Part shown: piece after piece, positions 1,697 to 18,887 of the stretch
Layout: every line of letters starts with the position of its first letter
Numbering within the stretch: position 1 is the first letter of the stretch
Origin: a virus
Lineage: Duplodnaviria; Heunggongvirae; Uroviricota; Caudoviricetes
DNA: 20,305 nt
Virus record (IMG/VR): IMGVR_UViG_2695420624_000005
Reading direction: 5' to 3' (one strand)
Program-made: the position numbers and the translations under genes
The notes under the pieces: model-generated
Database searches by the model: none
Told to the model about the DNA's origin: nothing
What the model saw: only the letters and a program-made list of their open reading frames with translations

Positions 1697-1891
1697 ATGT
1701 CAACGAAGAACAAAACCCGCAGAACAACAACCCGCAACATCCGCTTTCCTAACCAAATGATTGAACAAATTAACATCGCTCTTGAGCAAAAAGGGTCTGG
1801 GAATTTCTCAGCCTGGGTCATTGAAGCCTGCCGTCGGAGACTAACGTCAGAAAAGAGAGCATATACATCAATCCAAAGTGATGATGGATGA
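1697..1891 (+). CDS. Small hypothetical protein encoded next to cos (64 aa; possibly YlcI/DUF3950-like)
   Basis: 64 aa ORF MSTKNKTRRTTTRNIRFPNQMIEQINIALEQKGSGNFSAWVIEACRRRLTSEKRAYTSIQSDDG; the DNA corresponds to conserved lambda right-end sequence. Family assignment is from memory and uncertain. Confidence 0.45.
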   Translation: MSTKNKTRRTTTRNIRFPNQMIEQINIALEQKGSGNFSAWVIEACRRRLTSEKRAYTSIQSDDG

Positions 1892-2253
1892 ACATCCCGG
1901 TTTCTTCCACCATCGCACCGGAAAAGCGACTATGAGGGTAACCCTGCGTCTGTCAGCACAGTAAAACCCGGTGTGCATCGTTTTTGATTATTCCCGCACA
2001 CTCACGCAGAAGGAATTCCCCGTCGGGCTACGGTCATGGTTAATGCGGGAATACGGCGACGATACAGCGCAGCTAAAAGGGTAATAGACGGATAGACCGG
2101 TTTATTTCATTCCACAGGATTCTGAGTGTCCCCAACTTCCTCCAATAGTCTGAGCGTACACCTATATAGTTTTAATTTTCATCAATCCATTTAACTATCG
2201 TTTAATTGTTGTCACATAGGATTCTGCCGTTTTTAACAATGCAGGATAATAAG

Positions 2254-2547
2254 ATGAAAAAAATGTTGTTTTCTGCCGCTCTGGCAATGCTTATTACAGG
2301 ATGTGCTCAACAGACGTTTACTGTTGGAAACAAACCGACAGCAGTAACACCAAAGGAAACCATCACCCATCACTTCTTCGTTTCGGGAATTGGACAGGAG
2401 AAAACTGTTGATGCAGCCAAAATTTGTGGCGGCGCAGAAAATGTTGTTAAAACAGAAACCCAGCAAACATTCGTAAATGGATTGCTCGGTTTTATTACTT
2501 TAGGCATTTATACTCCGCTGGAAGCGCGTGTGTATTGCTCACAATAA
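2254..2547 (+). CDS. bor: Bor lipoprotein (serum-resistance lipoprotein, lambda Bor family)
   Basis: MKKMLFSAALAMLITGCAQQTFTVGNKPTAVTPKETITHHFFVSGIGQEKTVDAAKICGGAENVVKTETQQTFVNGLLGFITLGIYTPLEARVYCSQ: lipobox ITGC, 97 aa, near-identical to lambda Bor as recalled. The ORF track's longer 113 aa form starts at an upstream ATG. Confidence 0.9.
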   Translation: MKKMLFSAALAMLITGCAQQTFTVGNKPTAVTPKETITHHFFVSGIGQEKTVDAAKICGGAENVVKTETQQTFVNGLLGFITLGIYTPLEARVYCSQ

Positions 2548-2578
2548 TTGCATGAGTTGCCCATCGATATGGGCAGCT

Positions 2579-3040
2579 CTATCTGCACTGCTCATTAATA
2601 TACTTCTGGGTTCCTTCCAGTTGTTTTTGCATAGTGATCAGCCTCTCTCTGAGGGTGAAATAATCCTGTTCAGCGGTGTCTGCCAGTCGGGGGGAGGCTG
2701 CATTATCCACGCCGGAGGCGGTGGTGGCTTCACGCACTGACTGACAGACTGCTTTGATGTGCAACCGACGACGACCAGCGGCAACATCATCACGCAGAGC
2801 ATCATTTTCAGCTTTCGCATCAGCTAACTCCTTCGTGTATTTTGCATCGAGCGCAGCAACATCACGCTGACGCATCTGCATGTCAGTAATTGCCGCGTTC
2901 GCCAGCTTCAGTTCTTTGGCATTTTTGTCGCGCTGGGCTTTATAGGTAATGGCGTTATCACGGTAATGATTAACAGCCCATGACAGGCAGACGATGATGC
3001 AGATAACCAGAGCGGAGATAATCGCGGTTACTCTGTTCAT
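2579..3040 (-). CDS. Rz: Rz inner-membrane spanin (i-spanin)
   Basis: [72 protein letters not shown]... matches lambda Rz (153 aa). Start overlaps the endolysin stop (ATGA). Confidence 0.9.
2638..2820 (-). CDS. Rz1: Rz1 outer-membrane lipoprotein spanin (o-spanin), embedded in the +1 frame of Rz
   Basis: 60 aa [60 protein letters not shown]: lipobox VVGC and a proline-rich tail, fully embedded in Rz as in lambda. Confidence 0.85.
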
Positions 3041-3534
3041 TGCTGACCCCACAAACAGATTTCACGCTCAATCTCACGACGAGTCATGAGACCTTTCCAT
3101 TGCTTACCGCCAGCATATGTCCAGCGACGTAACTGATCACATGCGCCTTTGATATCGCCCTGGTTTATTTTGCGAAGAAGCGTCGATGTTCTGAAATTGC
3201 CAGCACCCACGTTGTAAACGAATGAGTAAAGAGCGCCGCGCGTTGTTTCCGGTATATCGACTTCGATGTATGGGTTAATTTGTCTGGCGACAGTGGCAAG
3301 GTCTTTATTCAAGAGTGCTTTGCATTCTGCTTTGGTATACGTTTTACCGAGCATGATGTCTTTTCCTGTATGCCCGTGACATACGGTCCATACACCAACA
3401 ATATCTTTGTATGGTATGTAGCTGACACCTTCCAGACCATCGTTACCACTTGGGCCAGTGATTAACACTGATGCTATAGCAATTGCTCCGCCACCAATAG
3501 CAGCAGCAACGGCTTTTCGTAATGATGGAGGCAT
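3037..3534 (-). CDS. rrrD: SAR endolysin (phage 21 R21 / RrrD-type lysozyme)
   Basis: 165 aa; N-terminal signal-anchor-release segment [20 protein letters not shown] followed by a lysozyme domain (…VCHGHTG…[17 protein letters not shown]…); matches R21/RrrD as recalled. Start overlaps the holin stop. Confidence 0.85.
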
Positions 3535-3749
3535 TATTCACCTCTCGCAGCCTTGCGCTTATCTTCTTTAATCTTGAAATAAAGGTTTGTCAGGTACGTC
3601 AGCAGGCCAAATACCAGGCTACCCAGCACACCTATTGCTGCCCACTGTGAGGGCGTGACTTTATCGAGCAGCTGTAAAAACCAGTAACCGGCACTACCTG
3701 CTGAGGTGCCATAGGCGACACCCGTTGTTAACTTATCCATGGATTTCAT
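3534..3749 (-). CDS. essD: Pinholin (phage 21 S21 / EssD-type class II holin) with MKSM dual-start motif
   Basis: [71 protein letters not shown], 71 aa with two TMDs; Met1 and Met4 give the antiholin/holin dual start. The ORF track extends to an upstream ATG at 3794, which I consider less likely. Confidence 0.85.
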
Positions 3750-4337
3750 AACCCCACCTCGCAGACAAAGCGGGTGTAAATTGAGGGAATACAACGTATC
3801 GCAAAAAAGCAGAAACGTAACAGACTCGGAGTCAGTGAATAACTCAGGTATTGAGTTATCAGCTAATATCGAGACTCAAAAAATGGAAAAACCAGCTCGA
3901 CGGCGGGTTTAAGCTGTGTGACGAAGTAACCACTCTTAACAGCATAACCAATTTTTTACGTACGTAAACCACTGAATGATATTTATGAGAATGCTACCGA
4001 GTGTTCAAAACACCACCACAAATACATAAGAAAACCTCAACAAATAACCAATAAATAATTTCCGGCGTTATTTTTAGTTAATTTAAATTAAACCATCGAA
4101 TTATAGACCCCCCATAAATAACAGCCATTAATATAAATTAGCTAATAGGTTTATTTTTGTTCAAATAAGAGCCATAAATAGGTTTCGATAGAAAAAGTTC
4201 AGATAAAAATAGAGATCTACTTCACAAATTAAATGAGAAACTAAAACTTACATCTTGAAATAATCACATTGATTAGATGAATATTTATCGCGCAGTGACA
4301 TCATTTTTTAATAATAGTTCAAAAAAAAGGGCTCACG

Positions 4338-5420
4338 ATGAAAAAATTAACAGTGGCAATTTCTGCTGTAGCTGCATCAGTACTGATGGCGATGTCTGCT
4401 CAGGCAGCTGAAATTTATAATAAAGACAGTAACAAGCTGGATCTGTACGGGAAAGTTAATGCTAAGCACTACTTCTCCTCTAATGATGCAGATGATGGTG
4501 ATACTACTTATGCCCGTCTTGGCTTCAAAGGTGAAACCCAAATCAACGATCAACTGACTGGTTTCGGTCAGTGGGAATATGAATTCAAAGGCAACCGCGC
4601 TGAATCTCAAGGTTCCTCCAAAGATAAAACCCGTCTTGCCTTCGCTGGCCTGAAATTCGGTGACTACGGCTCCATCGATTACGGCCGTAACTACGGTGTA
4701 GCATACGACATCGGTGCGTGGACTGACGTCCTGCCAGAATTCGGTGGTGACACTTGGACTCAAACAGATGTGTTCATGACTGGTCGCACCACTGGTGTTG
4801 CAACTTATCGTAACAACGACTTCTTTGGTCTGGTTGATGGTCTGAACTTTGCTGCTCAGTATCAGGGTAAAAATGACCGCACTGACGTAACTGAAGCTAA
4901 TGGTGATGGTTTCGGTTTCTCCACTACTTATGAGTATGAAGGATTCGGTGTAGGTGCAACCTATGCTAAATCTGATCGCACTAATAATCAGGTTATCTAC
5001 GGTAACAACGGTCTGAATGCTTCTGGTCAAAATGCTGAAGTATGGGCAGCTGGTCTGAAATATGATGCGAACAACATCTATCTGGCCACCACCTATTCTG
5101 AAACCCAGAACATGACTGTTTTTGGTAATAACCATATTGCCAACAAAGCACAAAACTTCGAAGCTGTTGCACAATATCAGTTCGACTTCGGCCTGCGTCC
5201 ATCCGTTGCTTACCTGCATTCTAAAGGAAAAGACTTGGGTGTTTGGGGTGATCAGGACCTGGTTGAATATGTTGATGTAGGTGCAACCTATTACTTCAAC
5301 AAAAATATGTCCACTTTTGTTGACTACAAAATCAACCTGATTGATAAGAGCGATTTCACGAAAGCATCTGGCGTTGCTACCGATGATATCGTTGCTGTAG
5401 GTATGGTTTACCAGTTCTAA
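4338..5420 (+). CDS. nmpC: Outer-membrane general porin, NmpC/OmpD (Lc) family, apparently intact
   Basis: 360 aa with signal peptide [29 protein letters not shown], porin motifs throughout and the C-terminal ...VAVGMVYQF. Opposite strand to the surrounding late genes; the preceding roughly 590 bp is very AT-rich. Confidence 0.85.
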
Positions 5421-5556
5421 TTTGATTACTAAAAGATATGTTGTGGGAGGCTTTGCCTCCCCAACATATAAGTGGCTCCCTCAAGCCACTTCCTTTAGAA
5501 GCACAACCTTGCTTCTAACTATACAAACCTTCTGTTATATATTACCCTTTATTTTT

Positions 5557-5582
5557 GGGGGCGTTTCAACGCCCCATTTTTA
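5557..5582 (+). terminator. Intrinsic terminator downstream of nmpC
   Basis: GGGGCG-TTTCAA-CGCCCC hairpin followed by ATTTTTAAT; two further hairpins (GGGAGGC/GCCTCCC near 5446..5462 and AGTGGCT/AGCCACT near 5472..5491) lie between the nmpC stop and the Q stop. Confidence 0.6.
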
Positions 5583-5608
5583 ATAACTTTTAGTAAATAA
5601 TTGGCGTA

Positions 5609-5992
5609 TTAATTAGAGTTATTAACAACGATATCCATCTCTAACCGGATATCTAATGCCATTAACATCCCTTCAATTATGCCCTCAGCCTTCTGTAACC
5701 TTTTCCCGATATAACCATCAGAGCAGCAATGCTTACCTGCCAGTGACATGAATGTCATACCAACTACATAATAATCTACTAATAAATCGTGCAAATCGCT
5801 GTTGTTCTTTTTCAGACGGGCCATGCACCCGCAAATGATCATCGCGTCATCGTCACAACATTGCGGGCGAGATTTTACTTTTGAAGGAATTAATCCCTTA
5901 AAACCGGCGGCAATGGACGACCAGGTCACATCTTCATGATTATTAGCCGCCCACGCTCCCCAACGCTCAAGAACCATCTGAATATCACGCAT
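5609..5992 (-). CDS. quuD: Late-gene antiterminator Q (phage 21/82-type; QuuD-like)
   Basis: [127 protein letters not shown] with a Cys-rich zinc-binding core; position is upstream of the lysis cassette. The ORF track's start at 6007 is an upstream in-frame ATG. Confidence 0.85.
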
Positions 5993-6077
5993 CAACTTAC
6001 TCCACAAAAATCAGACCAGAACGCCAATTACAAGCAAAAATCAATAAAACAGTATTAGTTGATTGTTATCTCTGACT

Positions 6078-6215
6078 TCATACTCCTGCTCCTGTCAGGG
6101 TTTTGGCGTAATTCTTCAGTATTCGGTAATCGGTCAAAACAGAACCGGGGAAACGATATAAGCGCAGACGCCCCCAGCGGTGGCGAAGAAGTTCTGCTAT
6201 ATTAAACTCAAACAT
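6078..6215 (-). CDS. ylcG: Small protein, YlcG-like (45 aa)
   Basis: Hand translation of the minus strand: [45 protein letters not shown], stop at 6078..6080. Its ATG shares a nucleotide with the rusA stop (TGATG). Below the ORF-track size cut-off; name from memory. Confidence 0.45.
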   Translation of the reverse strand: MFEFNIAELLRHRWGRLRLYRFPGSVLTDYRILKNYAKTLTGAGV

Positions 6216-6577
6216 CATTCATTCCCCATTTCGGTGATGGTCAGTTCCAGCCTCCCACCTTTGGTAACAGGCATCTTCACAACGCGGTAATCAACGACCT
6301 GAGCATCATCCAGCCAGAAACCTGCTTTAGTGAGTGCGTCAAAAGCGGCTTTTTGCAGATTATCCAGGTCACGGCGACGGCGATCCGGCATGTGGCACTC
6401 AATGCGGATTTTCACAGGCATAGCCAGGCCGATATCCAGCATTGCGCTTTTAATGATTCGGGCGACGTTATCGCGGTATGCCTGCCCCTCTGCACTGACG
6501 TGCGTGCGCCCGCGATTATGGCGGTAATAGCGATTATTGCTCGGAGGCCAGGGTAATGTGATACTGTAGGTATTCAC
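6215..6577 (-). CDS. rusA: Holliday-junction resolvase RusA
   Basis: 120 aa [51 protein letters not shown]...[31 protein letters not shown], the RusA sequence as I recall it. Confidence 0.9.
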
Positions 6578-6864
6578 GCCTTAATAACCCCCTCTTTCAG
6601 CCAGATAACCTGTGTTCTCGCCATACCTTCCAGCGCGCATTCTTTTGCATATGCAGCATCGACAAAATGTGTGCGGCGGTCGATTTCGTCGTGGCAGGCA
6701 GAACATGCAATGGTGGCAATCAGGTCTGGCGGTTTGATACCGGTACCGCACAATCCAGCCAGCCGGATATGTGCCAGTACAGACGTTTCAGAATTGCCAT
6801 TACATACGCCAGGGATTCTTACCTGGCATTCCCGACCACGCGCTGCTTTTCTCAAATCAGCCAT
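6574..6864 (-). CDS. ybcO: YbcO-like protein (DUF1364, Cys-rich putative nuclease)
   Basis: [67 protein letters not shown]...; start ATG lies 3 nt from the ninE stop and the stop overlaps the rusA start. Confidence 0.75.
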
Positions 6865-7027
6865 GATTCCTCCTTGCTGCCAGTCGCAACCATTTTTTAT
6901 CAACCAGGCTAGCGGTATATCCGAGCAGTGTTGGTATTTCGGATGGCTTCAGCTCAGGCTTACGCTTACGACGATTTGATACTCTGTAGATGTGTCCGTT
7001 CATGACACGAATAAGCGGTGTAGCCAT
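6857..7027 (-). CDS. ninE: NinE
   Basis: Hand translation: [56 protein letters not shown] (56 aa). Its ATG overlaps the ybcN stop (TAA at 7027..7029). Confidence 0.7.
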   Translation of the reverse strand: MATPLIRVMNGHIYRVSNRRKRKPELKPSEIPTLLGYTASLVDKKWLRLAARRNHG

Positions 7028-7482
7028 TACGCCTCCTGCTTGTCGCGGAGCAGCTGGAACTCGCAGCTCTGCGGAATAGTCAGGTGGCAGCCAATATTCA
7101 CCGCCCAGGCTTCAACCTTACACAGGAAGACATACATCTCTCCGGTATCAAGATCGGAGGTATGGCGTAACGACTGGATAGTGGTGATATCACCGGTTAC
7201 GACATCAACCAGGTCTTTGGTTTCATAACCGAGATATGTGTGTTTGAGAGCATCTTTTACCCAAGCTGGAGTGGCGAACGTTTTACCCCTGCTGATGAGG
7301 TATTCACTGATTTCGCTGTACCACATGTGGCTGAGTGCATTCTGGGAAAGACTGCGTTTCTCACGCCACGGTTTAAGCACCATGCGAAAGCATTTGCCCT
7401 CCTCCAGATAAGGCTGGATCTGCCGACCGATAGCGGTGAAGTTGCCGCGATGTAATTTGATGCCGTCTTGTGAGAGGTTCAC
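7027..7482 (-). CDS. ybcN: YbcN-like protein (nin-region protein; reported as a DNA base-flipping protein)
   Basis: 151 aa, GTG start preceded by GGAGGTG; [62 protein letters not shown]... Confidence 0.75.
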
Positions 7483-7696
7483 GCTTCACCTCCGCAGAGG
7501 TCAAACGCTAGATGCAAAGAATTGCAGGTGCATTTCTGCATCTGTGAAGGGAGAAGAGAGTTTGGATTGTATGTGCGCATAAACGTCCCCGTTTAGCGCA
7601 GAAGTCACCGGAGTTGTTCAGGCTCCGGTGACATAATTATGCCGTGTTGATTTCCCAAAATCAAAATCGATAGAATTGCTCCTTCTTAAAACACTT

Positions 7697-8494
7697 TTAC
7701 TCTCTGGAAGCTTTTCTTATCTCTCTTGGTGTTATATTAAAACGATTATGAAATCTTTCAGTAAAACGAGAAGGACACTTATAACCATTTTCTCTGGCAA
7801 TCTCGCTTATAGGTTTTACCGTCGTTTGTATAGCAGACAACGCATTATTTAACCTCACATCGTCCAGTATACTTTGGAAACTTACCCCCTCGCTTGCTAG
7901 ACGGCGATGTAATGTAGAAACAGAAATGTAGAGATATCGAGCAACCTTGTTTGCTGTCCATTTTGTGCCGGGTTCGGATAGCAGCAGGTTATAACAACGA
8001 CTTATCAATGATTGTTTACTATATGATAAAAGTAAATGATTAACATGATTCACTCCTAACGAAAGTAGAACGCCCATTGCTAAGTGCTCCTGAATTTTAG
8101 TTGAGAAGCCTCGGGAAACAGATGTTTTTAGTTGCTCCCAACAATATATTAACTCAGGATTCTGAGGTAAAAAGAAACTTGTTTTGTTACGTATTTGATC
8201 AGTTACCGTATAAAGTTTTTGGAAACTCTCAATTAAATCAATGGGTAAGTAAAGCATTTCTGCAAGATAAAGCCCTGCTTCAGGATAATTCTCAATATAA
8301 AATTCATAACCACAAGGAAATAATATTATTTGATTATTATCAACAGTTAAAGTATGCGTCTCCCAATTGATAACTTTCTTTCCCTGACGGATACGACACA
8401 AAGCTGGCATAAGAGGCTTAACCCTATGAATCTCATGATGTTTATGCATCCGTATTTCTTCGATCTTTAAGTTAGTCTTACCTCTTGCCAGCAT
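7697..8494 (-). CDS. ybcM: AraC/XylS-family transcriptional regulator (YbcM-like)
   Basis: 265 aa; C-terminal AraC-type HTH (…[82 protein letters not shown]…); the gene is visibly AT-rich. Confidence 0.8.
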
Positions 8495-8503
8495 ACTCTC
8501 ACC

Positions 8504-9055
8504 CTACTTTATCTCATAAACTGGTGTTATCTCAGCGGTTGCGATTTTATTAGCATTAAGCATATAACCAACTAACGCTCCGCTGGAGTTAGAATCTACA
8601 GGAATCTTTTCAGTTTTTAGAGCCCATACTTTAAACTGGTAATGATGTGGTTTATCTCCTTTAGGAGGACATGCGCCACCAAACCCAGCATAGCCAAAAT
8701 CATTTCGGCCTTGAACAGCACCAGTCGGCAGTTTTGTTCCATCACGTCTCCCTGCATCAACGGGCAAATATGTTATTGTTGCTGGAATATTAACAACAGT
8801 CCAATGCCACCAACCACTGCCTGTAGGTGCATCTGGATCATATACAGTTACGGCAAAGCTTTTGGTACCTTCAGGAACACCAGACCAGGTTAATGAGGGC
8901 GATGTATTACCACCTTCACACCCAAATCCAGAAAAGACATGAGACGTTGTAAGTTGCTCTCCTGTTTTTATTTCATTACTAGTGACCTGAAATGCTGCAG
9001 CCTGCGCAGAAAATGTTATGAATGCCAATACAGTTGAAACGATAAGTGTTTTCAT
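8504..9055 (-). CDS. ybcL: Periplasmic PEBP/RKIP-family protein (YbcL-like)
   Basis: 183 aa with signal peptide MKTLIVSTVLAFITFSAQA; PEBP-like motifs (…VYDPDAPTGSGWWHWTVVNIP…GACPPKGDKPHHYQFKVWAL…). Confidence 0.8.
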   Translation of the reverse strand: MKTLIVSTVLAFITFSAQAAAFQVTSNEIKTGEQLTTSHVFSGFGCEGGNTSPSLTWSGVPEGTKSFAVTVYDPDAPTGSGWWHWTVVNIPATITYLPVDAGRRDGTKLPTGAVQGRNDFGYAGFGGACPPKGDKPHHYQFKVWALKTEKIPVDSNSSGALVGYMLNANKIATAEITPVYEIK

Positions 9056-9519
9056 AAAAACCTCTTTGTTATGACCTATCGTTATTTTATTTGATATTCC
9101 TTTATCTCATTATGCATAAAGGCGCAATGTTTATGCAAAAGCAATCACAATTGTACCCCCAACCCAATTATTTGCCACAATATACACAAAGCACATTGAT
9201 ACTATCTAAAAACTCTGCTTTATTATTAGTAATACCTACGAAAGTCGGTGTTATTTTTTAACCTACCATTCAAAATACGTGACATACACCATTTTGCTCA
9301 TAATAATTTGTCACGTATTTTCAGTATTTGAATCTGCGACCAAGAGTTCTCACCTAACAAATGATTAAGATTGTATAGCTCATTTACTACCCCAATACAG
9401 CCGTACAAAACTCGCTTGTGGGAGCAAACAAAGTAATTACCCATTAAGTTTCGTCAAAGATAATTAATTCTGTCTTGCACTTTATCACCATAGCATAACT
9501 TAAAATCCGAGATCATTAT

Positions 9520-11046
9520 TTAGAAATAAATCTCACCATCAACCATATATTTGAGAGCACTTATCGCCTGCTGGGCGGATATTACTTTCATTAAAGGATA
9601 GTGTTTAAAAACAATGCCATTCATAAAATAGATATCACAGGTTTTATTATCCGTATTAATTATGATTTTTTCGAATGTTTTATAGGCAAGTGTACGGCAT
9701 AACTCTCGTCCATTTTTACTGGTTAAGTCAATAGCATAAAAATCACTGAATGAATTTACACCTTTACTCTTCAAAGTTTTCAATGATACCGAAGCCCTTC
9801 GTAATTCCTTATCTAATAGTCTTATTTTCTCTGCTATAGCGGTAACTTCAGGCGCGACAGACAATGCAACGATTAAATTATTAATTTTCATCTGAAGCTC
9901 AATAATTTTTAACTCTAAAGTTTAATTAGCATCTTTCTTGTTTTCAACTGGTTGAATTTTGCTACAATTAAAAAGCAATTCATTAATGATATTATAATCA
10001 ACCAAATCTCTTTTTATTGATGGCCTGTCACATCGATGTAATCTTCTCATCGGACAAACATAATAGCCATGCAAACTTCCAGATACCGCATGAACAATCA
10101 TGGTATTACCACAAGCCTCACACTTCATAACTGTTCGAAGTAGATTTATTAGCATAGGATTCTTGCTACTATTGCTAATACCAAAAGGTGCCAACCGAAT
10201 TTCCTGTACAGCGTAAAACAAATCATCTGATATAACTCTGGGATAATAGCCAGCGATTTCACTTATCCCTTTCCCTCTTGCACGATATGAAGGTACGCAT
10301 ATACCTATCAGAGCTTTATTCGCTAATAATTTTTCAATTACAGAAGGTCCCCATGCACTTTCTTTTCCTGAGAAATTCTTTACAGCATGATCATTTAAAT
10401 ACTTGGCTATTGCATTCAATGAGCGCCTTTCCATCCTGAGTTTAAAAATTAGCTCAATAGTTTTCACCCTGTCGGGGTCTGGAACAAAAGCCGTTCTTTT
10501 GTCATCTAAGGAGAGCCATCTCGGACAAGACGCCGTCATAATCGTACCTGATTCCATTGCATCCTGCCGTTTTTTCTTCCATGATAATTTAACCCGACTT
10601 GACTTTATCTCGCTTTCTTCATTTGCCCTTTGTGCTATAAGTATGGCTTTTATTAATGAATATGGCTCATTCAAAGAGTCAATATTATAGACTGTATTGT
10701 CGCAAAGAGTTATAACATCAATACCGTGATTCAAAATCAATTTCAGACGTTCAATCGCTTCACCGACTTTTTCTCTTGAAAGTCTGTCCAGACTTTCAAC
10801 TAACAATGTAGTTCCTGGCAATATATAACCATGCTCTATAGCATCTAAAAATTCCGAAAAAGCTCCTGATTGTGCATGCTTTCCTTTGAATGCACTTAAT
10901 CCTAAATCTTCATATGTTATGGTATCAAGATAATAATCACTATTTACCTTTAACCATTCAGCAATAAGTCTTCTCTGTCGGTTTAATGAGTCACCAGACA
11001 TCTGACCTGGTGATGAAAATCGCATATATGCTATGGCTTTTTTCAT
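9520..11046 (-). pseudogene. ybcK: Large serine recombinase (YbcK-like) split by a single in-frame TAA into 374-codon and 123-codon ORFs
   Basis: ORFs 9922..11046 (resolvase-type N-terminus MKKAIAYMRFSSPGQ…, recombinase domain, Cys-rich zinc-ribbon region) and 9520..9891 are in the same frame, separated by the TAA at 9922..9924 plus 10 sense codons. Read through, the total is 508 codons. Confidence 0.6.
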
Positions 11047-11300
11047 GGTGACACCTGCTAACGTATGCTTTTATAAACCTTAGTGGTGGGATATAATTTT
11101 TGTTTAATTTTTATTTAAAAAGACAATTAAGGTCACATTATCTTGAATATACAACAATAATCGTATTGCAATTTTCTTACGCCATAATCTTGAAAGCACA
11201 AAAGAATACATAAAAAATAAAGACATTAACAAAAAGCATAAAACGAGGCTCATATAAATATAAGAGCCTCCATATTTTAGTCGTTTAGAAACAAATTATT

Positions 11301-11636
11301 TTAATGTGGTGTGCTTCGTGACAATAAATTAATAACCAACACACCGGCACAAATCAACATCATACCTATAATGGCTGGCAGGTCCAGCCGTTGGCCGAAA
11401 AATCCCCATGACAGTAAACTAATCAGGACAATACCGACTCCTGACCAGATAGCATAAGCAATCCCTGTAGGAATATAAGCCAGCGTCTGAGCTAATAACC
11501 AGAATGATGCACAATAACAAATAATTGTACCAACAGATGGCCATAACCGTGTAAAACCTTCTGAAAACTTCATTAAGGTTGTACCAATGACCTCTGCAAG
11601 TATTGCACCACCAAGATAAATATAAGGGTTCATAGC
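11301..11636 (-). CDS. emrE: Small multidrug resistance (SMR) efflux transporter EmrE
   Basis: MNPYIYLGGAILAEVIGTTLMKFSEGFTRLWPSVGTIICYCASFWLLAQTLAYIPTGIAYAIWSGVGIVLISLLSWGFFGQRLDLPAIIGMMLICAGVLVINLLSRSTPH, 110 aa with four TMDs and the catalytic Glu14. The ORF track's 128 aa form uses an upstream ATG. Confidence 0.9.
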   Translation of the reverse strand, partial: AMNPYIYLGGAILAEVIGTTLMKFSEGFTRLWPSVGTIICYCASFWLLAQTLAYIPTGIAYAIWSGVGIVLISLLSWGFFGQRLDLPAIIGMMLICAGVLVINLLSRSTPH

Positions 11637-11700
11637 ATATTCTTTCCTGTTCAAACTGGAGAGAATTGTACTACAGTTTGAACTCAACTCACCTGTTTCA

Positions 11701-12003
11701 TCATTGTGTTCCCATTGATGTTCTTTTATATACCCTCAATACCCGTTTCATCGCGGCACTCTGGCGACACTCCTTAAAAATCAGATTCGTGCTCACCTTT
11801 CCTTCCCGTTCTTCTCTGGTAGCGAACCGGTAATACACCGTTCGCCAGACCTTACCATCAACGACCAGGATTCCTGCCCGCGCCATTTTAGCCGCAGCCT
11901 GATTTATGCTGGTTACGGTTGCGCCTGTTACCGCGGCAACGTCCTGTGCACAGAAGCTCTTATGCGTCCCCAGGTAATGAATAATTGCCTCTTTGCCCGT
12001 CAT
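11701..12003 (-). CDS. ren: Ren (Rex-exclusion) protein
   Basis: MTGKEAIIHYLGTHKSFCAQDVAAVTGATVTSINQAAAKMARAGILVVDGKVWRTVYYRFATREEREGK... resembles lambda Ren; start overlaps the P stop. Confidence 0.8.
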   Translation of the reverse strand: MTGKEAIIHYLGTHKSFCAQDVAAVTGATVTSINQAAAKMARAGILVVDGKVWRTVYYRFATREEREGKVSTNLIFKECRQSAAMKRVLRVYKRTSMGTQ

Positions 12004-12701
12004 ACACTTGCTCCTTTCAGTCCGAACTTAGCTTTAATTTCTGCGATCTTCGCCAGAGCCTGTGCACGATTTAGAGGTCTACCGCCCATAACAGGAAGTT
12101 GTTTTACTGGTTCAGGTATCGTCTCACCACGGTTAATTCGCGCTGTCATACAGGTCAGTTCATCGGCAGCCTTGCGCCGTAATTCCGCGTCAGTCAGCGC
12201 ATTGGCCCGCATGTTCTGGTACAAGTTGGTAACCAACCAGTAATGCGCGTTCGATTTCCACGGATAAGACTCTGCATCCGGATACAGGCCACGCTTCCGG
12301 CAATACTCGTAAACCATATCAACCAGCTCGCTGACGTTTGGCAGCCCGGCGTTAACAGATGCTTCTTCCCGGCACCAGGCGACAAACTGCCCGGGTGATG
12401 GCAGGAATGGTCGATTCTGCCGACGGGCTACGCGCATTCCAGCGTTAACCTGTTCCATTGTGGTGATCCCGTTTTCCCGGAAAGCCAGAACCCACTGGCG
12501 GCGGATTTCGTTCAGTTCATTCTGGTCACGGTTAGCCAGGCTCGCCGGGAAAGTTGCCAGTAACTGGCTTAACACACCGTTGATGATCTGCGCTACCTGC
12601 TGTACCTGTGGCTTTTCGTCGTACTGTTCCGGCATGTTGTTGGCGATCCGGCGCATCTGCTCACAGTCAAAGTTAACCATCTGTGCGGCGATGTTTTTCA
12701 T
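12000..12701 (-). CDS. P: Replication protein P (DnaB helicase loader)
   Basis: 233 aa MKNIAAQMVNFDCEQMRRIANNMPEQYDEKPQVQQVAQIINGV...KAKFGLKGASV, near-identical to lambda P as recalled; start overlaps the O stop. Confidence 0.9.
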   Translation of the reverse strand: MKNIAAQMVNFDCEQMRRIANNMPEQYDEKPQVQQVAQIINGVLSQLLATFPASLANRDQNELNEIRRQWVLAFRENGITTMEQVNAGMRVARRQNRPFLPSPGQFVAWCREEASVNAGLPNVSELVDMVYEYCRKRGLYPDAESYPWKSNAHYWLVTNLYQNMRANALTDAELRRKAADELTCMTARINRGETIPEPVKQLPVMGGRPLNRAQALAKIAEIKAKFGLKGASV

Positions 12702-13627
12702 AGCTCCACCCCGTAAATCCAGTCAGTGTTCGTCAGGTCGAGTTTTGGTTTGCCGGCTGTCACGCCAGCCTGTTGCTTGTTTCGGTTGATTTCGAGCTGG
12801 GTCCACTTGTCGCGGAGTTTGGCCGGACTTAGCACGTTACCGGACCAGAAGTTGTCCTGGCATGCCCAGCGGAACAGCACGCACATGTCGCGGTGGTTAC
12901 GTCCGTCACGTTCACGCATCAGGCGGATATCGTTAGCCCACCCTGCAAAATTCGGTTTTCTGGCTGATGGCGCGATGGTCTTCACCATGTCAAACATCCA
13001 CTCTGCGGCGGTCAGGTCTTCTGCTGTCCCCCACTTGCTGCCGCTCTGAATTGCAGCATCCGGTTTCACCACAGGAAGATCGTTTTCTGGTTGGTCAGAG
13101 GATTCGCCAGAATTCTCGGACGAAAAAGGTTTTATATTGTCTTTTGTTAGTTTGTCTTTTGTGTTTACCTGATTCGGGTAAACGCCTTTACCTGATTTGG
13201 GTAAACTTTTTTTACCTGATTCAGGTAAATTTACCTCTTTCAGGTAAACTTTATTTTTCTTACCTGATTCGGGTAATGTTGACCATTCACTGACCACATT
13301 ATTAATGCCGATATTCCGCCCGCTCTGAATAAGAATCCCACGCTTTACCAGAACGCTTTTTGCAGCAGAACACTTGTGCGGCAATATCCCGGTCAATTCG
13401 GAAAGTTGCTCGTTGCTCACCCAATCCAGTCTTTTATTAAAGCCATATGTTTTGCGCATGACAGCCAGGAAGACCAGAAGCTGGTGCTGTGTTAATCCGG
13501 CCAGCATCACAGCTTCCAGCAACTCATTTGCAATGCGCGTATAACCATCGTCGAGATCTGCCACGCGCCGCTCCTTTTGTGCCACATCCGGCACTGGAAA
13601 ATTGAATATCTCAGCAGTGTTTGCCAT
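12698..13627 (-). CDS. O: Replication initiator protein O (iteron-binding; N-terminal domain diverged from lambda O)
   Basis: Probable start is the ATG at 13627 with the strong SD GGGAGGA 5 nt upstream: MANTAEIFNFPVPDVAQKERRVADLDDGYTRIANELLEA... (compare lambda O MTNTAKILNF…ERNVADLDDGYARLSNMLLEA). The ori iterons lie inside the coding region. The ORF track extends to an upstream ATG at 13717. Confidence 0.85.
   Translation of the reverse strand: MANTAEIFNFPVPDVAQKERRVADLDDGYTRIANELLEAVMLAGLTQHQLLVFLAVMRKTYGFNKRLDWVSNEQLSELTGILPHKCSAAKSVLVKRGILIQSGRNIGINNVVSEWSTLPESGKKNKVYLKEVNLPESGKKSLPKSGKGVYPNQVNTKDKLTKDNIKPFSSENSGESSDQPENDLPVVKPDAAIQSGSKWGTAEDLTAAEWMFDMVKTIAPSARKPNFAGWANDIRLMRERDGRNHRDMCVLFRWACQDNFWSGNVLSPAKLRDKWTQLEINRNKQQAGVTAGKPKLDLTNTDWIYGVEL
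13165..13276. repeat. Replication origin iterons: five copies of a 17-bp palindrome (TTACCTGA-T-TCAGGTAA and variants) inside O, next to an AT-rich stretch (about 13125..13164)
   Basis: Copies at 13165..13181, 13188..13204, 13212..13228, 13231..13247 and 13260..13276; the third is a perfect palindrome. The AT-rich block TTTTATATTGTCTTTTGTTAGTTTGTCTTTTGTG lies on the downstream side relative to O transcription, the same layout as ori-lambda. Confidence 0.8.
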
Positions 13628-13713
13628 AATTCCTCCCGCAATGAGTGTGTTACGATTTGCACCTGAAAGTCGGTTCTGTTCGCGCAGACCGGCTTTCGCC
13701 ATTTCCGAACCTG

Positions 13714-14259
13714 TCATATTGCCCCCAGCATGGTGGTGACCATCGCCATCAGTGGACCAGCCAAATCCGGGTCCACACGAAACATCGACACAATGCCTTC
13801 ACTCATCTCCTTCAGTTTCTGGTGGCGTGGTGCGTTGAGAATGACAGCCTGTTTTGCCTCACTGAGTTCCTTTTCCATTTCAGCCAGCCGAGCCATGTAG
13901 CTATCCTGCTCAACCAGGTGGCCGCGATATTCCAGCGGTAGTACCGCCAGAATTGCCGGGGTCAGTTCACGCACGTTATTTCGGTATTTTTCAGAATCGA
14001 ATTTGTTATCGAGGAAGCGGAACAGCTTCTGGCGTGCACGGCTGACATCATCAGGGAAATCGATGGTGCCGCCGCCCTGCTCCCGATACTCATTCACAAT
14101 GAGTGCGGCAACAACATCCTGATTATCTGCAGCCGACCAGGCGCGAACGGCATCACGGATTTTTTCGTGGCCTGGCGCCTGTTTTGTTTGAGAACGATTT
14201 ATCACCGCAGTCGGGCTAAATCCGCTAGTCTGTTGGTATGTAAGTGGTTGCATAGTCAT
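13714..14259 (-). CDS. YdaT-like protein occupying the cII position (function unknown)
   Basis: 181 aa; contains …ALIVNEYREQGGGTIDFP…, reminiscent of the YdaT family found next to ydaS/cro-like genes in lambdoid prophages. No resemblance to lambda CII. Family call from memory. Confidence 0.4.
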   Translation of the reverse strand: MTMQPLTYQQTSGFSPTAVINRSQTKQAPGHEKIRDAVRAWSAADNQDVVAALIVNEYREQGGGTIDFPDDVSRARQKLFRFLDNKFDSEKYRNNVRELTPAILAVLPLEYRGHLVEQDSYMARLAEMEKELSEAKQAVILNAPRHQKLKEMSEGIVSMFRVDPDLAGPLMAMVTTMLGAI

Positions 14260-14283
14260 TGCCTTATCAGTTAACGCCGCAGT

Positions 14284-14517
14284 TTAGGCGGCAGAATTAC
14301 TCGCGTTAAACAATGGTGCGAGGTCGGGACGAATATCTGCTGGTTTAATCTTTCCACCAGTGGCTGAGACAATTTTCATTACATAGCGGGCATCAATTCC
14401 GCCACCGTGTAGCCAACGCCAAACTGTGGGTTGGGCTACACCGCATAGATCTGCCAGTCGTTTTTGACTACCTGTAATACTGATTGCGAGTTGAATGGTT
14501 TGATTTGTCATTATCAA
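14284..14517 (-). CDS. cro: Cro-like repressor (YdaS/Cro HTH family)
   Basis: 77 aa with HTH SQKRLADLCGVAQPTVWRWLHGG; divergent from cI across an operator-bearing intergenic region. Confidence 0.7.
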   Translation of the reverse strand: MIMTNQTIQLAISITGSQKRLADLCGVAQPTVWRWLHGGGIDARYVMKIVSATGGKIKPADIRPDLAPLFNASNSAA

Positions 14518-14621: not shown

Positions 14622-15314
14622 ATGAAAAAAGAAACTCTTGCTGATCGCTTAAACCTAGCGATGGAACAATCTGGAATGTCTCAAGGCGCTCTTGCAAAGG
14701 CGTCTGGCGTAGCTCAACCCACAATCTGGAGACTGACAAGCGGCAACGCTCGCGGCTCAACAAAAATTGTTGAAATAGCTAATGCATTGGGTGTTCGAAC
14801 AGAATGGCTCTCATCAGGCATAGGCCCGATGAGAAATGACGGTCAACAATCAGGGAAGCCTGCTGTCAGCCATTCAAAATACTTCAAAATTGACGTTCTT
14901 GATATAGAAGTCAGTGCCGGGCCGGGAGTCATCAACCGTGAGTTTGTAGAAGTTCTACGCTCGGTTGAGTACTCGTTTGACGATGCTCGTCACATGTTCG
15001 ATGGTAGGAAGGCAGAAAATATCCGCATCATTAACGTACGCGGTGACAGCATGTCAGGAACGATCGAACCAGGTGATCTTCTGTTCGTTGATATCACGGT
15101 TAAATCTTTCGACGGTGATGGTATCTATGCGTTTCTGTATGACGACACAGCCCATGTAAAGCGCCTGCAAATGATGAAGGATAAGCTGCTAGTTATCTCT
15201 GATAACAAGAGCTACTCACCGTGGGACCCGATCGAGAAAGACGAGATGAACCGGGTATTCATCTTCGGGAAAGTCATCGGAAGCATGCCGCAGACGTATA
15301 GGAAGCATGGGTAG
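14622..15314 (+). CDS. cI: CI-type prophage repressor (N-terminal HTH plus LexA-like S24 autopeptidase domain)
   Basis: From the ATG at 14622: MKKETLADRLNLAMEQSGMSQGALAKASGVAQPTIWRLTSG… and C-terminal …RGDSMSGTIEPGDLLFVD…HVKRLQ (Ser/Lys dyad). The ORF track's TTG start at 14586 seems less likely. Confidence 0.85.
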   Translation: MKKETLADRLNLAMEQSGMSQGALAKASGVAQPTIWRLTSGNARGSTKIVEIANALGVRTEWLSSGIGPMRNDGQQSGKPAVSHSKYFKIDVLDIEVSAGPGVINREFVEVLRSVEYSFDDARHMFDGRKAENIRIINVRGDSMSGTIEPGDLLFVDITVKSFDGDGIYAFLYDDTAHVKRLQMMKDKLLVISDNKSYSPWDPIEKDEMNRVFIFGKVIGSMPQTYRKHG

Positions 15315-15425
15315 TGAAGGACGTGTCAACTCTATTTTGTAAGCTATCCAGACTCACAGTTGCAGATCGACGAGTAACTTACATACAGCACAAAAAAACA
15401 ATATGCACGTGCTTTTAGACTAGAC

Positions 15426-15440
15426 TTACCATAATGGTAA
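15426..15440. promoter_or_regulatory. 15-bp perfect palindrome TTACCAT-A-ATGGTAA overlapping the first ATG of the toxin gene (candidate antitoxin operator)
   Basis: Read directly from sequence; MqsA antitoxins are known to bind ACCT…AGGT-type palindromes in their own promoters, and this site has an ACCA…TGGT core. Confidence 0.4.
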
Positions 15441-15844
15441 CAAGTATGATTCTTAGCAGATATGTGGGAACTCCTCCCCGTGATGGCGAGGACAGAAAGA
15501 TTCAAGGTGGTCCGCTTTATTTAGATATCATTGATTTGATTGATGAATGTGACACACTGCCTTGGACTAGACGGTGTATCAGGGATGTTCAATCGCTTTC
15601 TTTAGATGCAGATGACATCAAATCTATGGTGATAAAAGCAGTCACTAAAGGGAGATTTCTAGGTTCAGAATGGTGTCAAGGCAGTAAACCAGGTGTATGG
15701 GCAGCTTGTGATGCTTATAGCTTTGAGCACTCATTTTGGTGCCAAGCTATGCATAAAGAACTTAATAACGAGTTCTACATTAAATTTTTTGTAAACATTA
15801 CTGGCAATGTAGTGCTTACAGTATCTCTTCATCTCTCTAATTGA
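15434..15844 (+). CDS. MqsR-family toxin (putative mRNA interferase) with an N-terminal extension; start codon uncertain (15434 or 15446)
   Basis: C-terminal region …LSLDADDIKSMVIKAVTKGRF…FYIKFFVNITGNVVLTVSLHLSN resembles MqsR (…LGLDFDGMCNVIIGLSESDF…VYLKITVIHDVLIVSFKEK, from memory). Toxin gene precedes the antitoxin gene as in mqsRA. Confidence 0.6.
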   Translation: MVTSMILSRYVGTPPRDGEDRKIQGGPLYLDIIDLIDECDTLPWTRRCIRDVQSLSLDADDIKSMVIKAVTKGRFLGSEWCQGSKPGVWAACDAYSFEHSFWCQAMHKELNNEFYIKFFVNITGNVVLTVSLHLSN

Positions 15845-15868
15845 GTGATGATAAATGAGGATTTTTAT

Positions 15869-16456
15869 ATGAGAAACAACAACATATGTCCAGTTTGTGG
15901 TGTAGGTCATCTCACCGTGGAGATGGAGTATGATGATGTTACTTATAAAGGGGAAACAAAAAATCTCCCAATAAGGTTTTCTGTGTGTGATCAATGTGGT
16001 TCGGAAACTGCCACACCAGTCGATTTACGAGAAAACAAACGAATTTTCAATGAATACAAAAAGTCTATCGATGGACTTTTAACAGGAAAAGAATTAAAAA
16101 AAATTAGAACTGAAGTATGGATGATAACCCAGCAAAAGGCATCCTCTATATTTGGTGGGGGGCCTAAGGCATTTTCCAAGTATGAATCTGATGATGTCAT
16201 TCAATCAGAAGCAATGGATAAACTGATGCGTTTAGCAGCAGAAGTTCCTGATGCATTCAAAAGGTTACGGGAATTATCTGGCGAAATCAAAGTTGAAAGA
16301 ACAGTCTCATCATCTAAATCTTTACCTATATGGAAACCTGAAGCAAAAGCACAATTTGAAAACGATGATCAGGGATTTGACAGCAAATCACCAGCCCAAA
16401 CAAAAATGAATCAAACATCAATAAAGATAAAAACTGTTGCTAAGCGGGTAGCATGA
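15869..16456 (+). CDS. MqsA-family antitoxin (zinc-ribbon plus XRE-HTH) with a C-terminal extension of roughly 65 aa
   Basis: Preferred start is the ATG at 15869 (GAGGA 8 nt upstream); the ORF track starts at the GTG at 15845. N-terminal CPVC…CDQC zinc ribbon; HTH …LTGKELKKIRTEVWMITQQKASSIFGGGPKAFSKYE… matches MqsA …LTQKEASEIFGGGVNAFSRYE…; low-complexity tail after about residue 135. Confidence 0.75.
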   Translation: MRNNNICPVCGVGHLTVEMEYDDVTYKGETKNLPIRFSVCDQCGSETATPVDLRENKRIFNEYKKSIDGLLTGKELKKIRTEVWMITQQKASSIFGGGPKAFSKYESDDVIQSEAMDKLMRLAAEVPDAFKRLRELSGEIKVERTVSSSKSLPIWKPEAKAQFENDDQGFDSKSPAQTKMNQTSIKIKTVAKRVA

Positions 16457-16956
16457 TGAATGAACTTCTTAGATCAGCAATAGACGCATTATCAATAATG
16501 CATATCAATATCAGAGAATCTAACTTTGCTTTTTCTGAAGGGTATAATAGCTTTAACTTCAACAGCATAAATAAGCAAACACAATCATTTCGTAAGATAA
16601 AAAAAATCGAAGCTATTGAATTAGTAAGTGACGATGACTCATTAAAAAATGAGCTATATTACTCTTTTCACTACTCAGTTGGGCTTAGATTTATTGCAAA
16701 ATCCGAAGAAACATCTAAAGACGAAAATGATGTTGATACAATTTTTTCTATAGAAGCAATTTTTGAGGCGATATATCGCTCAAAGAGAGAATTATCTAAA
16801 GAAGAGTTAGAAGAATTTGCTAAGCAAAATGTAGGTTTTAATGTATGGCCTTTTTGGCGAGAGTATGTTCAAAACAGCACATCCAGAATGGGAATTACTA
16901 CAATAGCTATACCATTCTTTAAATTCAATAAATCAGACATACCTTCATTAGATTAA
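16453..16956 (+). CDS. SecB-like chaperone (predicted third component of a toxin-antitoxin-chaperone module)
   Basis: 167 aa; start overlaps the antitoxin stop (ATGA). C-terminal half …DTIFSIEAIFEAI…FNVWPFWREYVQNSTSRMGITTIAIPFFKF resembles E. coli SecB …FLCEVQQGGIFSIAGIEG…[30 protein letters not shown] (from memory). Size matches SecB (about 155 aa). Confidence 0.55.
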   Translation: MMNELLRSAIDALSIMHINIRESNFAFSEGYNSFNFNSINKQTQSFRKIKKIEAIELVSDDDSLKNELYYSFHYSVGLRFIAKSEETSKDENDVDTIFSIEAIFEAIYRSKRELSKEELEEFAKQNVGFNVWPFWREYVQNSTSRMGITTIAIPFFKFNKSDIPSLD

Positions 16957-16970
16957 ATTCAAATATAACT

Positions 16971-16997
16971 CCCGGCTACCGTGCCGGGTTTTCTTTT
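16971..16997 (+). terminator. Intrinsic terminator ending the cI/TAC transcription unit
   Basis: CCCGGC-TACCGT-GCCGGG hairpin followed by TTTTCTTTT, 15 bp after the stop of the SecB-like gene. Confidence 0.7.
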
Positions 16998-17119
16998 GCC
17001 CTCCCCCCATCACACAAACCGTTCAAAAAACCACCACGACCTCACTTCAGTTATCGCTATGCGATGCAAGTCACAAAATTAATTCTTTTTGCTATCAAAC
17101 ATTTAATATCAAAACACAT

Positions 17120-17170
17120 CAACTAATAGCAATAAGCATTGATATCACCAATAGCAATAGCTATTATCAC
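17120..17170 (+). promoter_or_regulatory. PL-like promoter with OL operators
   Basis: -35 TTGATA (17139..17144), 17-bp spacer, -10 TATTAT (17162..17167). The perfect 16-bp palindrome AATAGC-AATA-GCTATT (17150..17165) overlaps the spacer and -10; a second related 16-mer AATAGCAATAAGCATT lies at 17124..17139. Same half-site family as in OR. Confidence 0.6.
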
Positions 17171-17273
17171 CATATCGCAACAACACAACGATACGGCAAC
17201 CACCTGATTCACCGTTGCGATGACCGCTTAGATCCGCAGCTTGAATTTCAGCAGGCTTCGGGGAGTGCGAGGG

Positions 17274-17651
17274 ATGAAACGGACGCGTGAACGTCGGTGT
17301 GACCAGCTGAAATCAACTCAACATTTCATACCTTAGTCGCTTCAACGAGGCGGCTTAGTTATGACAACCGGCGGCCATCCACCGCCTGAATACGCGCAGA
17401 AGTCTTTATATGTTCAGCAGCCCAGCTTACGGGCAGGAGTTTTTATGGTTCATCAACATTACGGAACGCAGACCGTTAATCGCGGTGCGGTCATGCCAGG
17501 AATGCTGGTCAAACGCAAAGATGGTACCTGGACTGCATCAGCTAATTTACACGGACGACTTTATCTGCATCGCGGCATTGAGCGCACTTATACCCGTGAC
17601 TTGCTCGTGGAAGTTTTTCTCGACGGACGCGGCAACGGTCTGAATCACTAA
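17274..17651 (+). pseudogene. Candidate N-like antiterminator frame interrupted by an in-frame TAG (20-codon Arg-rich peptide, then a 96-codon ORF at 17361..17651)
   Basis: 17274..17336 encodes MKRTRERRCDQLKSTQHFIP followed by TAG; the same frame continues into the 96 aa ORF whose C-terminus …RLYLHRGIERTYTRD… loosely resembles the lambda N C-terminus …RTWYSKPGERGITCSG…. Position is right after PL/OL. Weak evidence. Confidence 0.3.
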
Positions 17652-17726: not shown

Positions 17727-18887
17727 ATGAACGCTTATTACATTCAGGATCGTCTTGAGGCTCAGAGCTGGGCGCGTCACTACCAGCAGATCGCCCGTGA
17801 AGAGAAAGAGGCAGAACTGGCAGACGACATGGAAAAAGGCCTGCCCCAGCACCTGTTTGAATCGCTATGTATCGATCATTTGCAACGCCACGGGGCCAGC
17901 AAAAAAGCCATTAAAGAGTTTGGATTAGGCAGAGACAGGCGAATCGCAATCACTGAAGCTATACAGGCCAACATTGAGTTATTTTCAGGACACAAACACA
18001 AGCCTCTGACAGCGAGAATCAACAGTGATAATTCCGTTACGTTACATTCATGGCTTGATCGCTACGAAAAAATCCTGGCCAGCAGAGGAATCAAACAGAA
18101 GACACTCATAAATTACATGAGCAAAATTAAAGCAATAAGGAGGGGTCTGCCTGATGCTCCACTTGAAGACATCACCACAAAAGAAATTGCGGCAATGCTC
18201 AATGGATACATAAACGAGGGCAAGGCGGCGTCAGCCAAGTTAATCAGATCAACACTGAGCGATGCATTCCGAGAGGCAATAGCTGAAGGCCATATAACAA
18301 CAAACCCTGTCGCTGCCACTCGCGCAGCAAAATCAGAGGTAAGGAGATCAAGACTTACGGCTGACGAATACCTGAAAATTTATCAAGCAGCAGAATCATC
18401 ACCATGTTGGCTCAGACTTGCAATGGAACTGGCTGTTGTTACCGGGCAACGAGTTGGTGATTTATGCGAAATGAAGTGGTCTGATATCGTAGATGGATAT
18501 CTTTATGTCGAGCAAAGCAAAACAGGCGTAAAAATTGCCATCCCAACAGCATTGCATGTTGATGCTCTCGGAATATCAATGAAGGAAACACTTGATAAAT
18601 GCAAAGAGATTCTTGGCGGAGAAACCATAATTGCATCTACTCGTCGCGAACCGCTTTCATCCGGCACAGTATCAAGGTATTTTATGCGCGCACGAAAAGC
18701 ATCAGGTCTTTCCTTCGAAGGGGATCCGCCTACCTTTCACGAGTTGCGCAGTTTGTCTGCAAGACTCTATGAGAAGCAGATAAGCGATAAGTTTGCTCAA
18801 CATCTTCTCGGGCATAAGTCGGACACCATGGCATCACAGTATCGTGATGACAGAGGCAGGGAGTGGGACAAAATTGAAATCAAATAA
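17727..18887 (+). CDS. int: In-frame gam'-'int fusion: first 62 codons of GamS joined to lambda integrase from about residue 34 to the C-terminus
   Basis: [60 protein letters not shown] matches the short form of lambda Gam; from …[46 protein letters not shown]… to …[28 protein letters not shown] the protein matches lambda Int. The GamS RBS (AGGAG) is retained upstream. No xis, bet or exo is present. Confidence 0.8.

Follow-up and report, generated by a model that had tools for sequence, protein, structure and literature searches.

The DNA analysed here, 20,305 nucleotides from the IMG/VR virus record IMGVR_UViG_2695420624_000005 (Caudoviricetes; the whole stretch is called the window below), contains three plus-strand genes forming a compact operon (15434–15844, 15869–16456 and 16453–16956) in a lambdoid prophage of Escherichia coli. 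The third open reading frame (ORF), ORF3, had been described in an initial annotation as a divergent SecB-like protein, translationally coupled to the gene before it, and this protein and its two partners are the subject of the present study. The genes follow the order toxin, antitoxin, SecB-like chaperone, which is the tricistronic order of toxin–antitoxin–chaperone (TAC) modules:

15434–15844, plus strand: toxin of 136 amino acids with a predicted MqsR fold (RelE superfamily), a putative mRNA endoribonuclease; the RefSeq start is at 15446 (132 amino acids)
15869–16456, plus strand: MqsA-family antitoxin of 195 amino acids, with a zinc ribbon (CPVC...CDQC), a helix-turn-helix (HTH) and a C-terminal extension; the RefSeq start is at 15869
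16271–16453, plus strand: C-terminal extension of the antitoxin, residues 135–195 (61 residues), lying beyond the end of the MqsA profile
16453–16956, plus strand: ORF3, an intact ORF of 167 amino acids (RefSeq WP_021568458.1), the probable SecB-like TAC chaperone (SecB-TA, "MqsC")

The ATG of ORF3 (16453–16455) overlaps the TGA stop codon (16454–16456) of the MqsA-family gene in the sequence ATGA, and a GAGGA Shine-Dalgarno sequence is located 7 nt upstream of the antitoxin start. The initial annotation was thus right to call ORF3 a translationally coupled third gene.

The SecB-like protein

The exact ORF3 protein is found on at least 1000 contigs under the name "protein-export chaperone SecB", which is also its name in RefSeq and UniRef. 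Searched as a single sequence, ORF3 gives a marginal SecB match that is confined to its C-terminal half (residues ~85–154). Residues 86–154 align with positions 65–126 of the 141 in the Pfam SecB profile (PF02556; E 0.0084), and the scores are below the curated thresholds in both Pfam (16.5 versus 26 bits) and the NCBIfam SecB model (15.3 versus 143 bits; E 0.013). The motifs TIFSIEAIF and NVWPFWREYVQNSTSRMG...IP lie within the stretch that aligns to the SecB models, where the initial annotation had placed the SecB likeness on the strength of FSI and P[FY]xRE...SR.G motifs. The best match of ORF3 alone among the sequences in the Protein Data Bank (PDB) is 5mtw (Rv1957 of Mycobacterium tuberculosis; E 0.011), and PADLOC reports a weak match (7e-4) to PD-T4-9_C, the CmdC chaperone.

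Profiles built from the ORF3 family gave different results according to their depth. A profile of 11 sequences brought little gain (E 0.0047), whereas one of 81 sequences, searched against the whole PDB, returned 5mtw as its sole match with an E-value of 1.1e-6. Nine of these 81 family members match Pfam SecB individually, the best at 4.9e-6. ORF3 belongs to a large family: when 1.84 billion cluster representatives were searched with a profile, 3129 clusters were recovered at E ≤ 1e-3, and 770 were recovered at E ≤ 1e-10.

The AlphaFold2 model of ORF3 (predicted local distance difference test score 81.6; predicted template-modelling score 0.76) consists of four long strands (13–27, 41–55, 68–82 and 96–110), two helices (116–125 and 132–145) and a short N-terminal helix. 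In a Foldseek search of the PDB with this model, the top 18 matches were all SecB or SecB-TA proteins (E 1e-7 to 4e-4, over ~145–160 columns). The best was again 5mtw (E 1.2e-7; template-modelling scores 0.64/0.76), aligned over ~158 columns that include the N-terminal half, followed by the SecB proteins of Haemophilus influenzae and E. coli. Because the predicted fold matches SecB structures, we regard the SecB relationship of ORF3 as settled. According to the model the SecB fold extends over the whole length of the protein, and the N-terminal half, called divergent in the initial annotation, is divergent in sequence only and is still predicted to form the SecB sheet. By fold and by family profile ORF3 is thus a SecB-type protein, but it does not reach the curated Pfam threshold.

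Housekeeping SecB (E. coli 1qyn; H. influenzae 1fx3/1ozb) shares with ORF3 the four-stranded sheet and the two helices, and its PYARE...SRG corresponds to PFWRE...SR.G of ORF3. In contrast, ORF3 is just 13–15% identical to the solved SecB structures, is predicted to have an additional N-terminal helix, and is encoded in a toxin–antitoxin operon, whereas housekeeping secB lies in a yibN-grxC-secB-gpsA context. ORF3 is also less acidic, with an isoelectric point of 5.1 compared with 4.3 for E. coli SecB.

The antitoxin and its C-terminal extension

The product of the second gene matches TIGR03830 (6.9e-33) and Pfam MqsA_antitoxin (2.3e-17; residues 15–142 of a 203-amino-acid reading of the gene, so that the match ends at residue 134 of 195). 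When it was aligned with 15 homologues from related loci and with MqsA of E. coli K-12, the zinc ribbon and the HTH were conserved and the tail was variable. The tail is absent from K-12 MqsA, whose sequence is consistent with the 131 positions of the Pfam model. The protein is therefore an MqsA-family antitoxin with a C-terminal extension that MqsA of the two-gene K-12 system lacks, which is what is expected of an antitoxin bearing a chaperone-addiction (ChAD) region.

The extension contains three aromatic residues (W, F and F) and a hydrophobic IKIKTV stretch, and it ends in ...KRVA, that is, in Val-Ala. In the enterobacterial homologues the tail likewise has LPIW, two F residues, a hydrophobic IKI(K/R)TV and a terminal Val-Ala. 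Both the ChAD concept and the Val-Ala degron come from earlier work (PMC5105189; bioRxiv 10.1101/2024.02.24.581848), in which ClpXP degrons are described for HigA1 of M. tuberculosis, with Val-Ala, and for CmdA, with Ala-Ala (bioRxiv 10.1101/2024.02.24.581848). By analogy with these proteins the tail is a putative ChAD, and its terminal Val-Ala putatively resembles a ClpXP degron.

The putative toxin gene

The first gene is still annotated as encoding a hypothetical protein. Structure prediction gives its product the MqsR ribonuclease-toxin fold, with putative cleavage activity. An hhalign comparison of the family profile with E. coli MqsR was weak or non-significant and is not used as evidence. 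The copy of PADLOC used here gives no match even for K-12 MqsR and apparently has no model for MqsR, MqsA or MqsC, so that missing PADLOC matches in the window are uninformative.

Genes next to the chaperone relatives

The gene neighbourhood was surveyed at 117 loci, comprising the best 80 of 527 matches in GTDB species genomes and 37 viral contigs from IMG/VR. At 116 of the 117, an ORF on the same strand stops between -29 and +23 nt from the start inferred for the chaperone, and at 100 of these 116 the distance lies between -5 and +8 nt. The upstream proteins, 107 after removal of redundancy, include 64 HTH_3/XRE (HigA-like), 20 HicB and 15 MqsA proteins. HicA, HigB, Gp49, MqsR and AbiEii toxins are among the products of the next gene further upstream, where many proteins have no Pfam match. 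Relatives of ORF3 are thus consistently tied to toxin–antitoxin pairs, and the counts agree with the published pairing of TAC chaperones with HigBA, HicAB and MqsRA modules (PMC5105189).

The antitoxins of these loci also share a feature of their C-termini. Ala-Ala or Val-Ala is the terminal dipeptide in 59 of the 107 non-redundant partner antitoxins (55%), compared with 2.9% (18 of 622) of the other ORFs at these loci (Fisher p 6e-41). From these sequences, a C-terminal ssrA-like ClpXP degron seems to be common in TAC antitoxins of the HigA, HicB and MqsA types.

The linkage to antitoxin genes in 116 of 117 loci bears on a very improbable alternative, namely that ORF3 is functional in protein export generally, as an extra SecB brought by the phage for secretion or for its own morphogenesis, and that its position after the antitoxin gene is incidental. 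Such a role would fit its database name and its SecB fold, and some SecB-TA proteins can reportedly replace SecB in part. The linkage is, however, a strong argument against a general export role. In addition, the closest relative of ORF3 is a TAC chaperone and not a housekeeping SecB, the identity to solved SecB proteins is low, the ATGA coupling ties ORF3 synthesis to that of the antitoxin, the protein is less acidic than E. coli SecB, and E. coli already has secB. The initial annotation had likewise preferred a dedicated antitoxin partner to an export chaperone, and the context, an adjacent MqsA-family gene with a 61-residue tail together with the surveyed loci, supports this.

Since its components are an MqsR-like protein, an MqsA protein with a tail and a SecB-like protein, the module is of the MqsRAC type of TAC, and as far as sequence can tell it has every feature by which a TAC is recognized. 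We consider it very likely that ORF3 is the SecB-like chaperone of an MqsR/MqsA-type TAC module in the immunity region of a lambdoid E. coli prophage.

Operon boundaries and a candidate operator

Two further elements delimit the operon:

16971–16998, plus strand: intrinsic terminator, with a hairpin CCCGGC-loop-GCCGGG (16971–16988) followed by the T-run TTTTCTTTTG; it begins 15 nt past the ORF3 stop
15426–15440, no strand: perfect palindrome TTACCATAATGGTAA (TTACCAT-A-ATGGTAA), which has one exact match in the window and overlaps the first ATG of the toxin gene

The palindrome was followed through 21 MqsR/MqsA/SecB-like loci, which have 17 distinct upstream regions and encode proteins only ~35–50% identical. 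Of the 17 regions, 14 have it ahead of the toxin gene with unchanged spacing and reading frame (13 exact copies and one with a changed central base), and the DNA flanking it is not conserved among these loci. Operons of this type from distant genera thus keep the palindrome TTACCATAATGGTAA, often lengthened to ACTTACCATAATGGTAAGT. MqsA binds palindromes in its own promoter, and by analogy the conserved palindrome is a likely candidate operator for the MqsA-type antitoxin.

The in-frame ATG inside the palindrome is probably the true toxin start, giving 136 amino acids rather than the 132 of RefSeq. The palindrome also includes a CATAAT, and at five of the distant loci this is preceded, 16 nt upstream, by a good -35 hexamer. 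This pair would set the transcript start downstream of the palindrome ATG, in conflict with that start codon, and the conflict could mean that initiation of the toxin is leaderless or non-AUG. In the E. coli copy the -35 ahead of the palindrome CATAAT is poor, and no terminator-like site was found between the cI-type repressor gene and the operon; therefore, rexAB-like read-through from the repressor promoter is plausible.

Prophage setting and distribution

The gene before the operon encodes a phage repressor, which is labelled cI in phage PhiR70_1 and XRE regulator in RefSeq:

14622–15314, plus strand: cI-type prophage repressor (HTH and S24 peptidase; Pfam Peptidase_S24 1.5e-18, HTH_3 and Phage_CI_repr), directly upstream of the operon

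In strain E2 the genes are arranged in the order ren, P, O, ydaT-like and cro-like (minus strand), then the cI-type repressor, the three-gene operon, a small ORF, a fusion of gam and int fragments, and ybhC. Because ybhC adjoins the prophage in E2, the prophage is placed at the lambda attachment site, so that the prophage origin proposed in the initial annotation holds, and the operon is also carried by PhiR70_1, an isolated phage with a complete genome of 48.8 kb. There it is flanked by cI and kil-gam-bet-exo...xis-int. Both PhiR70_1 and the E2 prophage have the order cI, TAC, kil, gam, with the TAC between cI and the leftward early genes, and the operon thus occupies the slot directly downstream of cI where lambda has rexAB.

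Of 5426 complete E. coli genomes, 18 carry the operon region (15400–17000) at 99.8% identity or more, each time on the chromosome and in a single copy. A sensitive blastn search detected only one sequence type of the operon in these 5426 genomes, and a Klebsiella phage has a copy at 75% identity.

On the far side of the operon, the ORF at 17727–18887 (plus strand, 386 amino acids) begins with the first 64 residues of Gam, the host-nuclease inhibitor, and continues in frame into a lambda-type integrase with arm-binding, SAM-like and catalytic domains. Relative to PhiR70_1, the prophage in the window has lost bet, exo, orf60a... and xis; therefore, it is probably unable to excise normally. The Prokaryotic Genome Annotation Pipeline (PGAP) calls both the gam and the int halves pseudogenes.

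Between the operon terminator and a kil-like ORF (17361–17651), positions 16999–17360 of the window contain no ORF of 40 or more amino acids on either strand, and therefore no N-type antiterminator gene at the position it has in lambda. This stretch includes a strong promoter-like site, TTGATA-17-TATTAT, at 17139–17167, among repeated AATAGCAATA and TATCACCA motifs, which is probably pL with its operators. An Rfam scan of the window found no known RNA. Positions 1–14500 carry cargo typical of DLP12 (emrE, the ybcK recombinase gene, ybcL, ybcM, ybcN, ninE, ybcO, rusA and quuD) despite the integration beside ybhC, and the emrE-ybcK block is also present in the active phage PhiR70_1.

Four of the IMG/VR contigs carry a cI-like gene that is followed, 100–350 nt downstream on the same strand, by a TAC with an XRE/HigA-like antitoxin. 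TACs of different toxin–antitoxin families appear to have filled the slot beside the repressor of temperate phages repeatedly.

Comparison with known TAC systems

The E. coli C496_10 MqsRAC system shares with the window operon its species and its three-part architecture of MqsR-type toxin, MqsA-type antitoxin and SecB-like chaperone. Its toxin is neutralized only by MqsA together with MqsC, and the system blocks phage T2 (PMC9519451; PMC10783111); extra MqsC or CmdC abolishes defence (PMC9519451). No sequence, accession or primer for C496_10 mqsRAC was found in the main texts or available supplements of PMC9519451, PMC10783111 and PMC5105189, and a full-text literature search with the RefSeq accessions of the operon returned nothing. 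Because one sequence type was found in 5426 E. coli genomes, it is plausible that the window operon is identical or near-identical to C496_10 MqsRAC.

In V. cholerae RC385 an MqsRA-SecB TAC has been validated experimentally, and it is of the MqsA type (PMC5105189). Its MqsA shares the block FGGGPxAFSKYxxDDVxQSxAMDKL...AAEVP with the window antitoxin and has a C-terminal ChAD (amino acids 136–176). In contrast, the ChAD differs in sequence and length from that of the window, and a prophage setting is not described for the RC385 TAC.

The HigB1-HigA1-SecB-TA system of M. tuberculosis (Rv1955–Rv1957; 5mtw) provides the best match to ORF3 in both sequence and structure. As in the window operon, the chaperone gene is third and the antitoxin ChAD ends in Val-Ala. 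Unlike the window operon, it has a HigBA pair, is chromosomal, and has a shorter ChAD that rests on a single key Tyr; ORF3 is ~14% identical to its chaperone.

E. coli NT1F31 HigBAC resembles the window operon in its setting, since it is a lambdoid prophage TAC that follows cI directly and fills the rexAB slot. Its chaperone, HigC, acts as the phage sensor: gpV, a tail protein of lambda, titrates it, and escape phages carry gpV S54P (bioRxiv 10.1101/2024.02.24.581848). Its antitoxin is of the HigA type and 218 amino acids long, with a 96-amino-acid ChAD in which four aromatics are spaced ~30 residues apart, whereas the window antitoxin is of the MqsA type and 195 amino acids long, with a 61-amino-acid tail and clustered W/F/F. 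The residue numbers of the HigC pocket (Y39, N41, R49 and D71) do not map onto ORF3. The antitoxin family, its length and the spacing within the ChAD all differ, and we rejected the identification of the operon with NT1F31 HigBAC. The initial annotation had suggested that phage-encoded clients might titrate the chaperone and that phage escape mutants might map to structural proteins; by analogy, this is the mechanism already published for related systems, and the earlier interpretation, whose main points hold as far as sequence analysis can judge, restates known TAC biology.

Proposed mechanism and alternatives

Following published TACs, the ChAD tail would make the antitoxin prone to aggregation, a substrate of ClpXP, or both. 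A SecB-like tetramer would bind the tail, probably co-translationally and aided by the ATGA coupling, and as long as it is bound the antitoxin would remain functional and hold the toxin in check. Expression of the operon in the lysogen would probably go along with that of cI, much like rexAB in lambda, and the conserved palindrome over the toxin start would probably mediate autoregulation. When another phage infects the cell, one of its abundant proteins might compete for the client-binding groove of the chaperone; the antitoxin would then be lost, the MqsR-like toxin would cleave mRNA, and phage production would stop.

Several points weigh against the interpretation of ORF3 as the chaperone of an MqsRAC-type TAC. 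For the allele in the window, chaperone dependence, toxin activity, defence and the trigger are all inferred. ORF3 fails the Pfam SecB gathering score, and an hhalign comparison of its family profile with E. coli SecB was weak (E 0.0063, 31 columns) and is not used as evidence. The aromatics of the window ChAD are 7–9 residues apart, compared with ~30 in HigA, and the binding mode may differ. Finally, the prophage in the window is defective, as the Gam-Int fusion shows, so that selection on the module is not guaranteed, but the module is intact and identical in the active phage PhiR70_1.

The state of the prophage also enters into an alternative that we consider improbable, in which the operon is a genuine TAC whose main role is not defence. 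It would instead be a prophage addiction or stabilization cassette, or a stress-responsive growth regulator whose chaperone senses the general proteostasis load. The first description of TAC, in M. tuberculosis, was of a stress-responsive system (PMC3581621), E. coli MqsRAC is reported to yield persisters rather than suicide (PMC10783111), and the module persists here in a decayed prophage without recombination and excision genes. However, the operon lies in the cI-adjacent slot of lambdoid phages, the home of exclusion and defence cargo, where TACs of different families recur, and all three E. coli TACs that have been tested defend against phage. That the operon is an inactive remnant of a cryptic prophage, its ORFs intact by chance, would suit the surrounding gam-int deletion fusion with its two PGAP pseudogenes, but can be largely dismissed, because all three ORFs remain intact in 18 genomes and a complete 48.8-kb phage, at 99.8% identity or more, and because conservation of the proteins reaches down to 35% identity in many genera that keep the operon architecture.

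With the operon taken as an MqsRAC-type TAC, a more specific proposal can be made, which is tentative and rather unlikely as a whole. The operon would be an MqsRAC allele distinct from that of C496_10, and its sensor would recognize a phage protein other than lambda gpV or the T2 trigger. The way in which the short ChAD, with its clustered aromatics and Val-Ala degron, contacts the chaperone would differ from that of HigA, and the toxin start inside the operator palindrome, with leaderless or non-canonical initiation, would result in a low toxin-to-antitoxin ratio.

Significance

SecB-like TAC chaperones, E. coli MqsRAC, the cI-adjacent location and triggering by titration have all been published, and RefSeq already labels ORF3 as SecB. 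The RefSeq name "protein-export chaperone SecB" nevertheless probably misstates the function of the protein, and the structural evidence supports renaming ORF3 as a TAC chaperone and the first gene as an MqsR-family toxin. The isolated phage PhiR70_1, which carries the operon, is a ready experimental system for finding the trigger of the chaperone. The Ala-Ala and Val-Ala ends of the antitoxins, together with the conserved palindrome over the toxin start codon, could guide work on the regulation of TAC modules.

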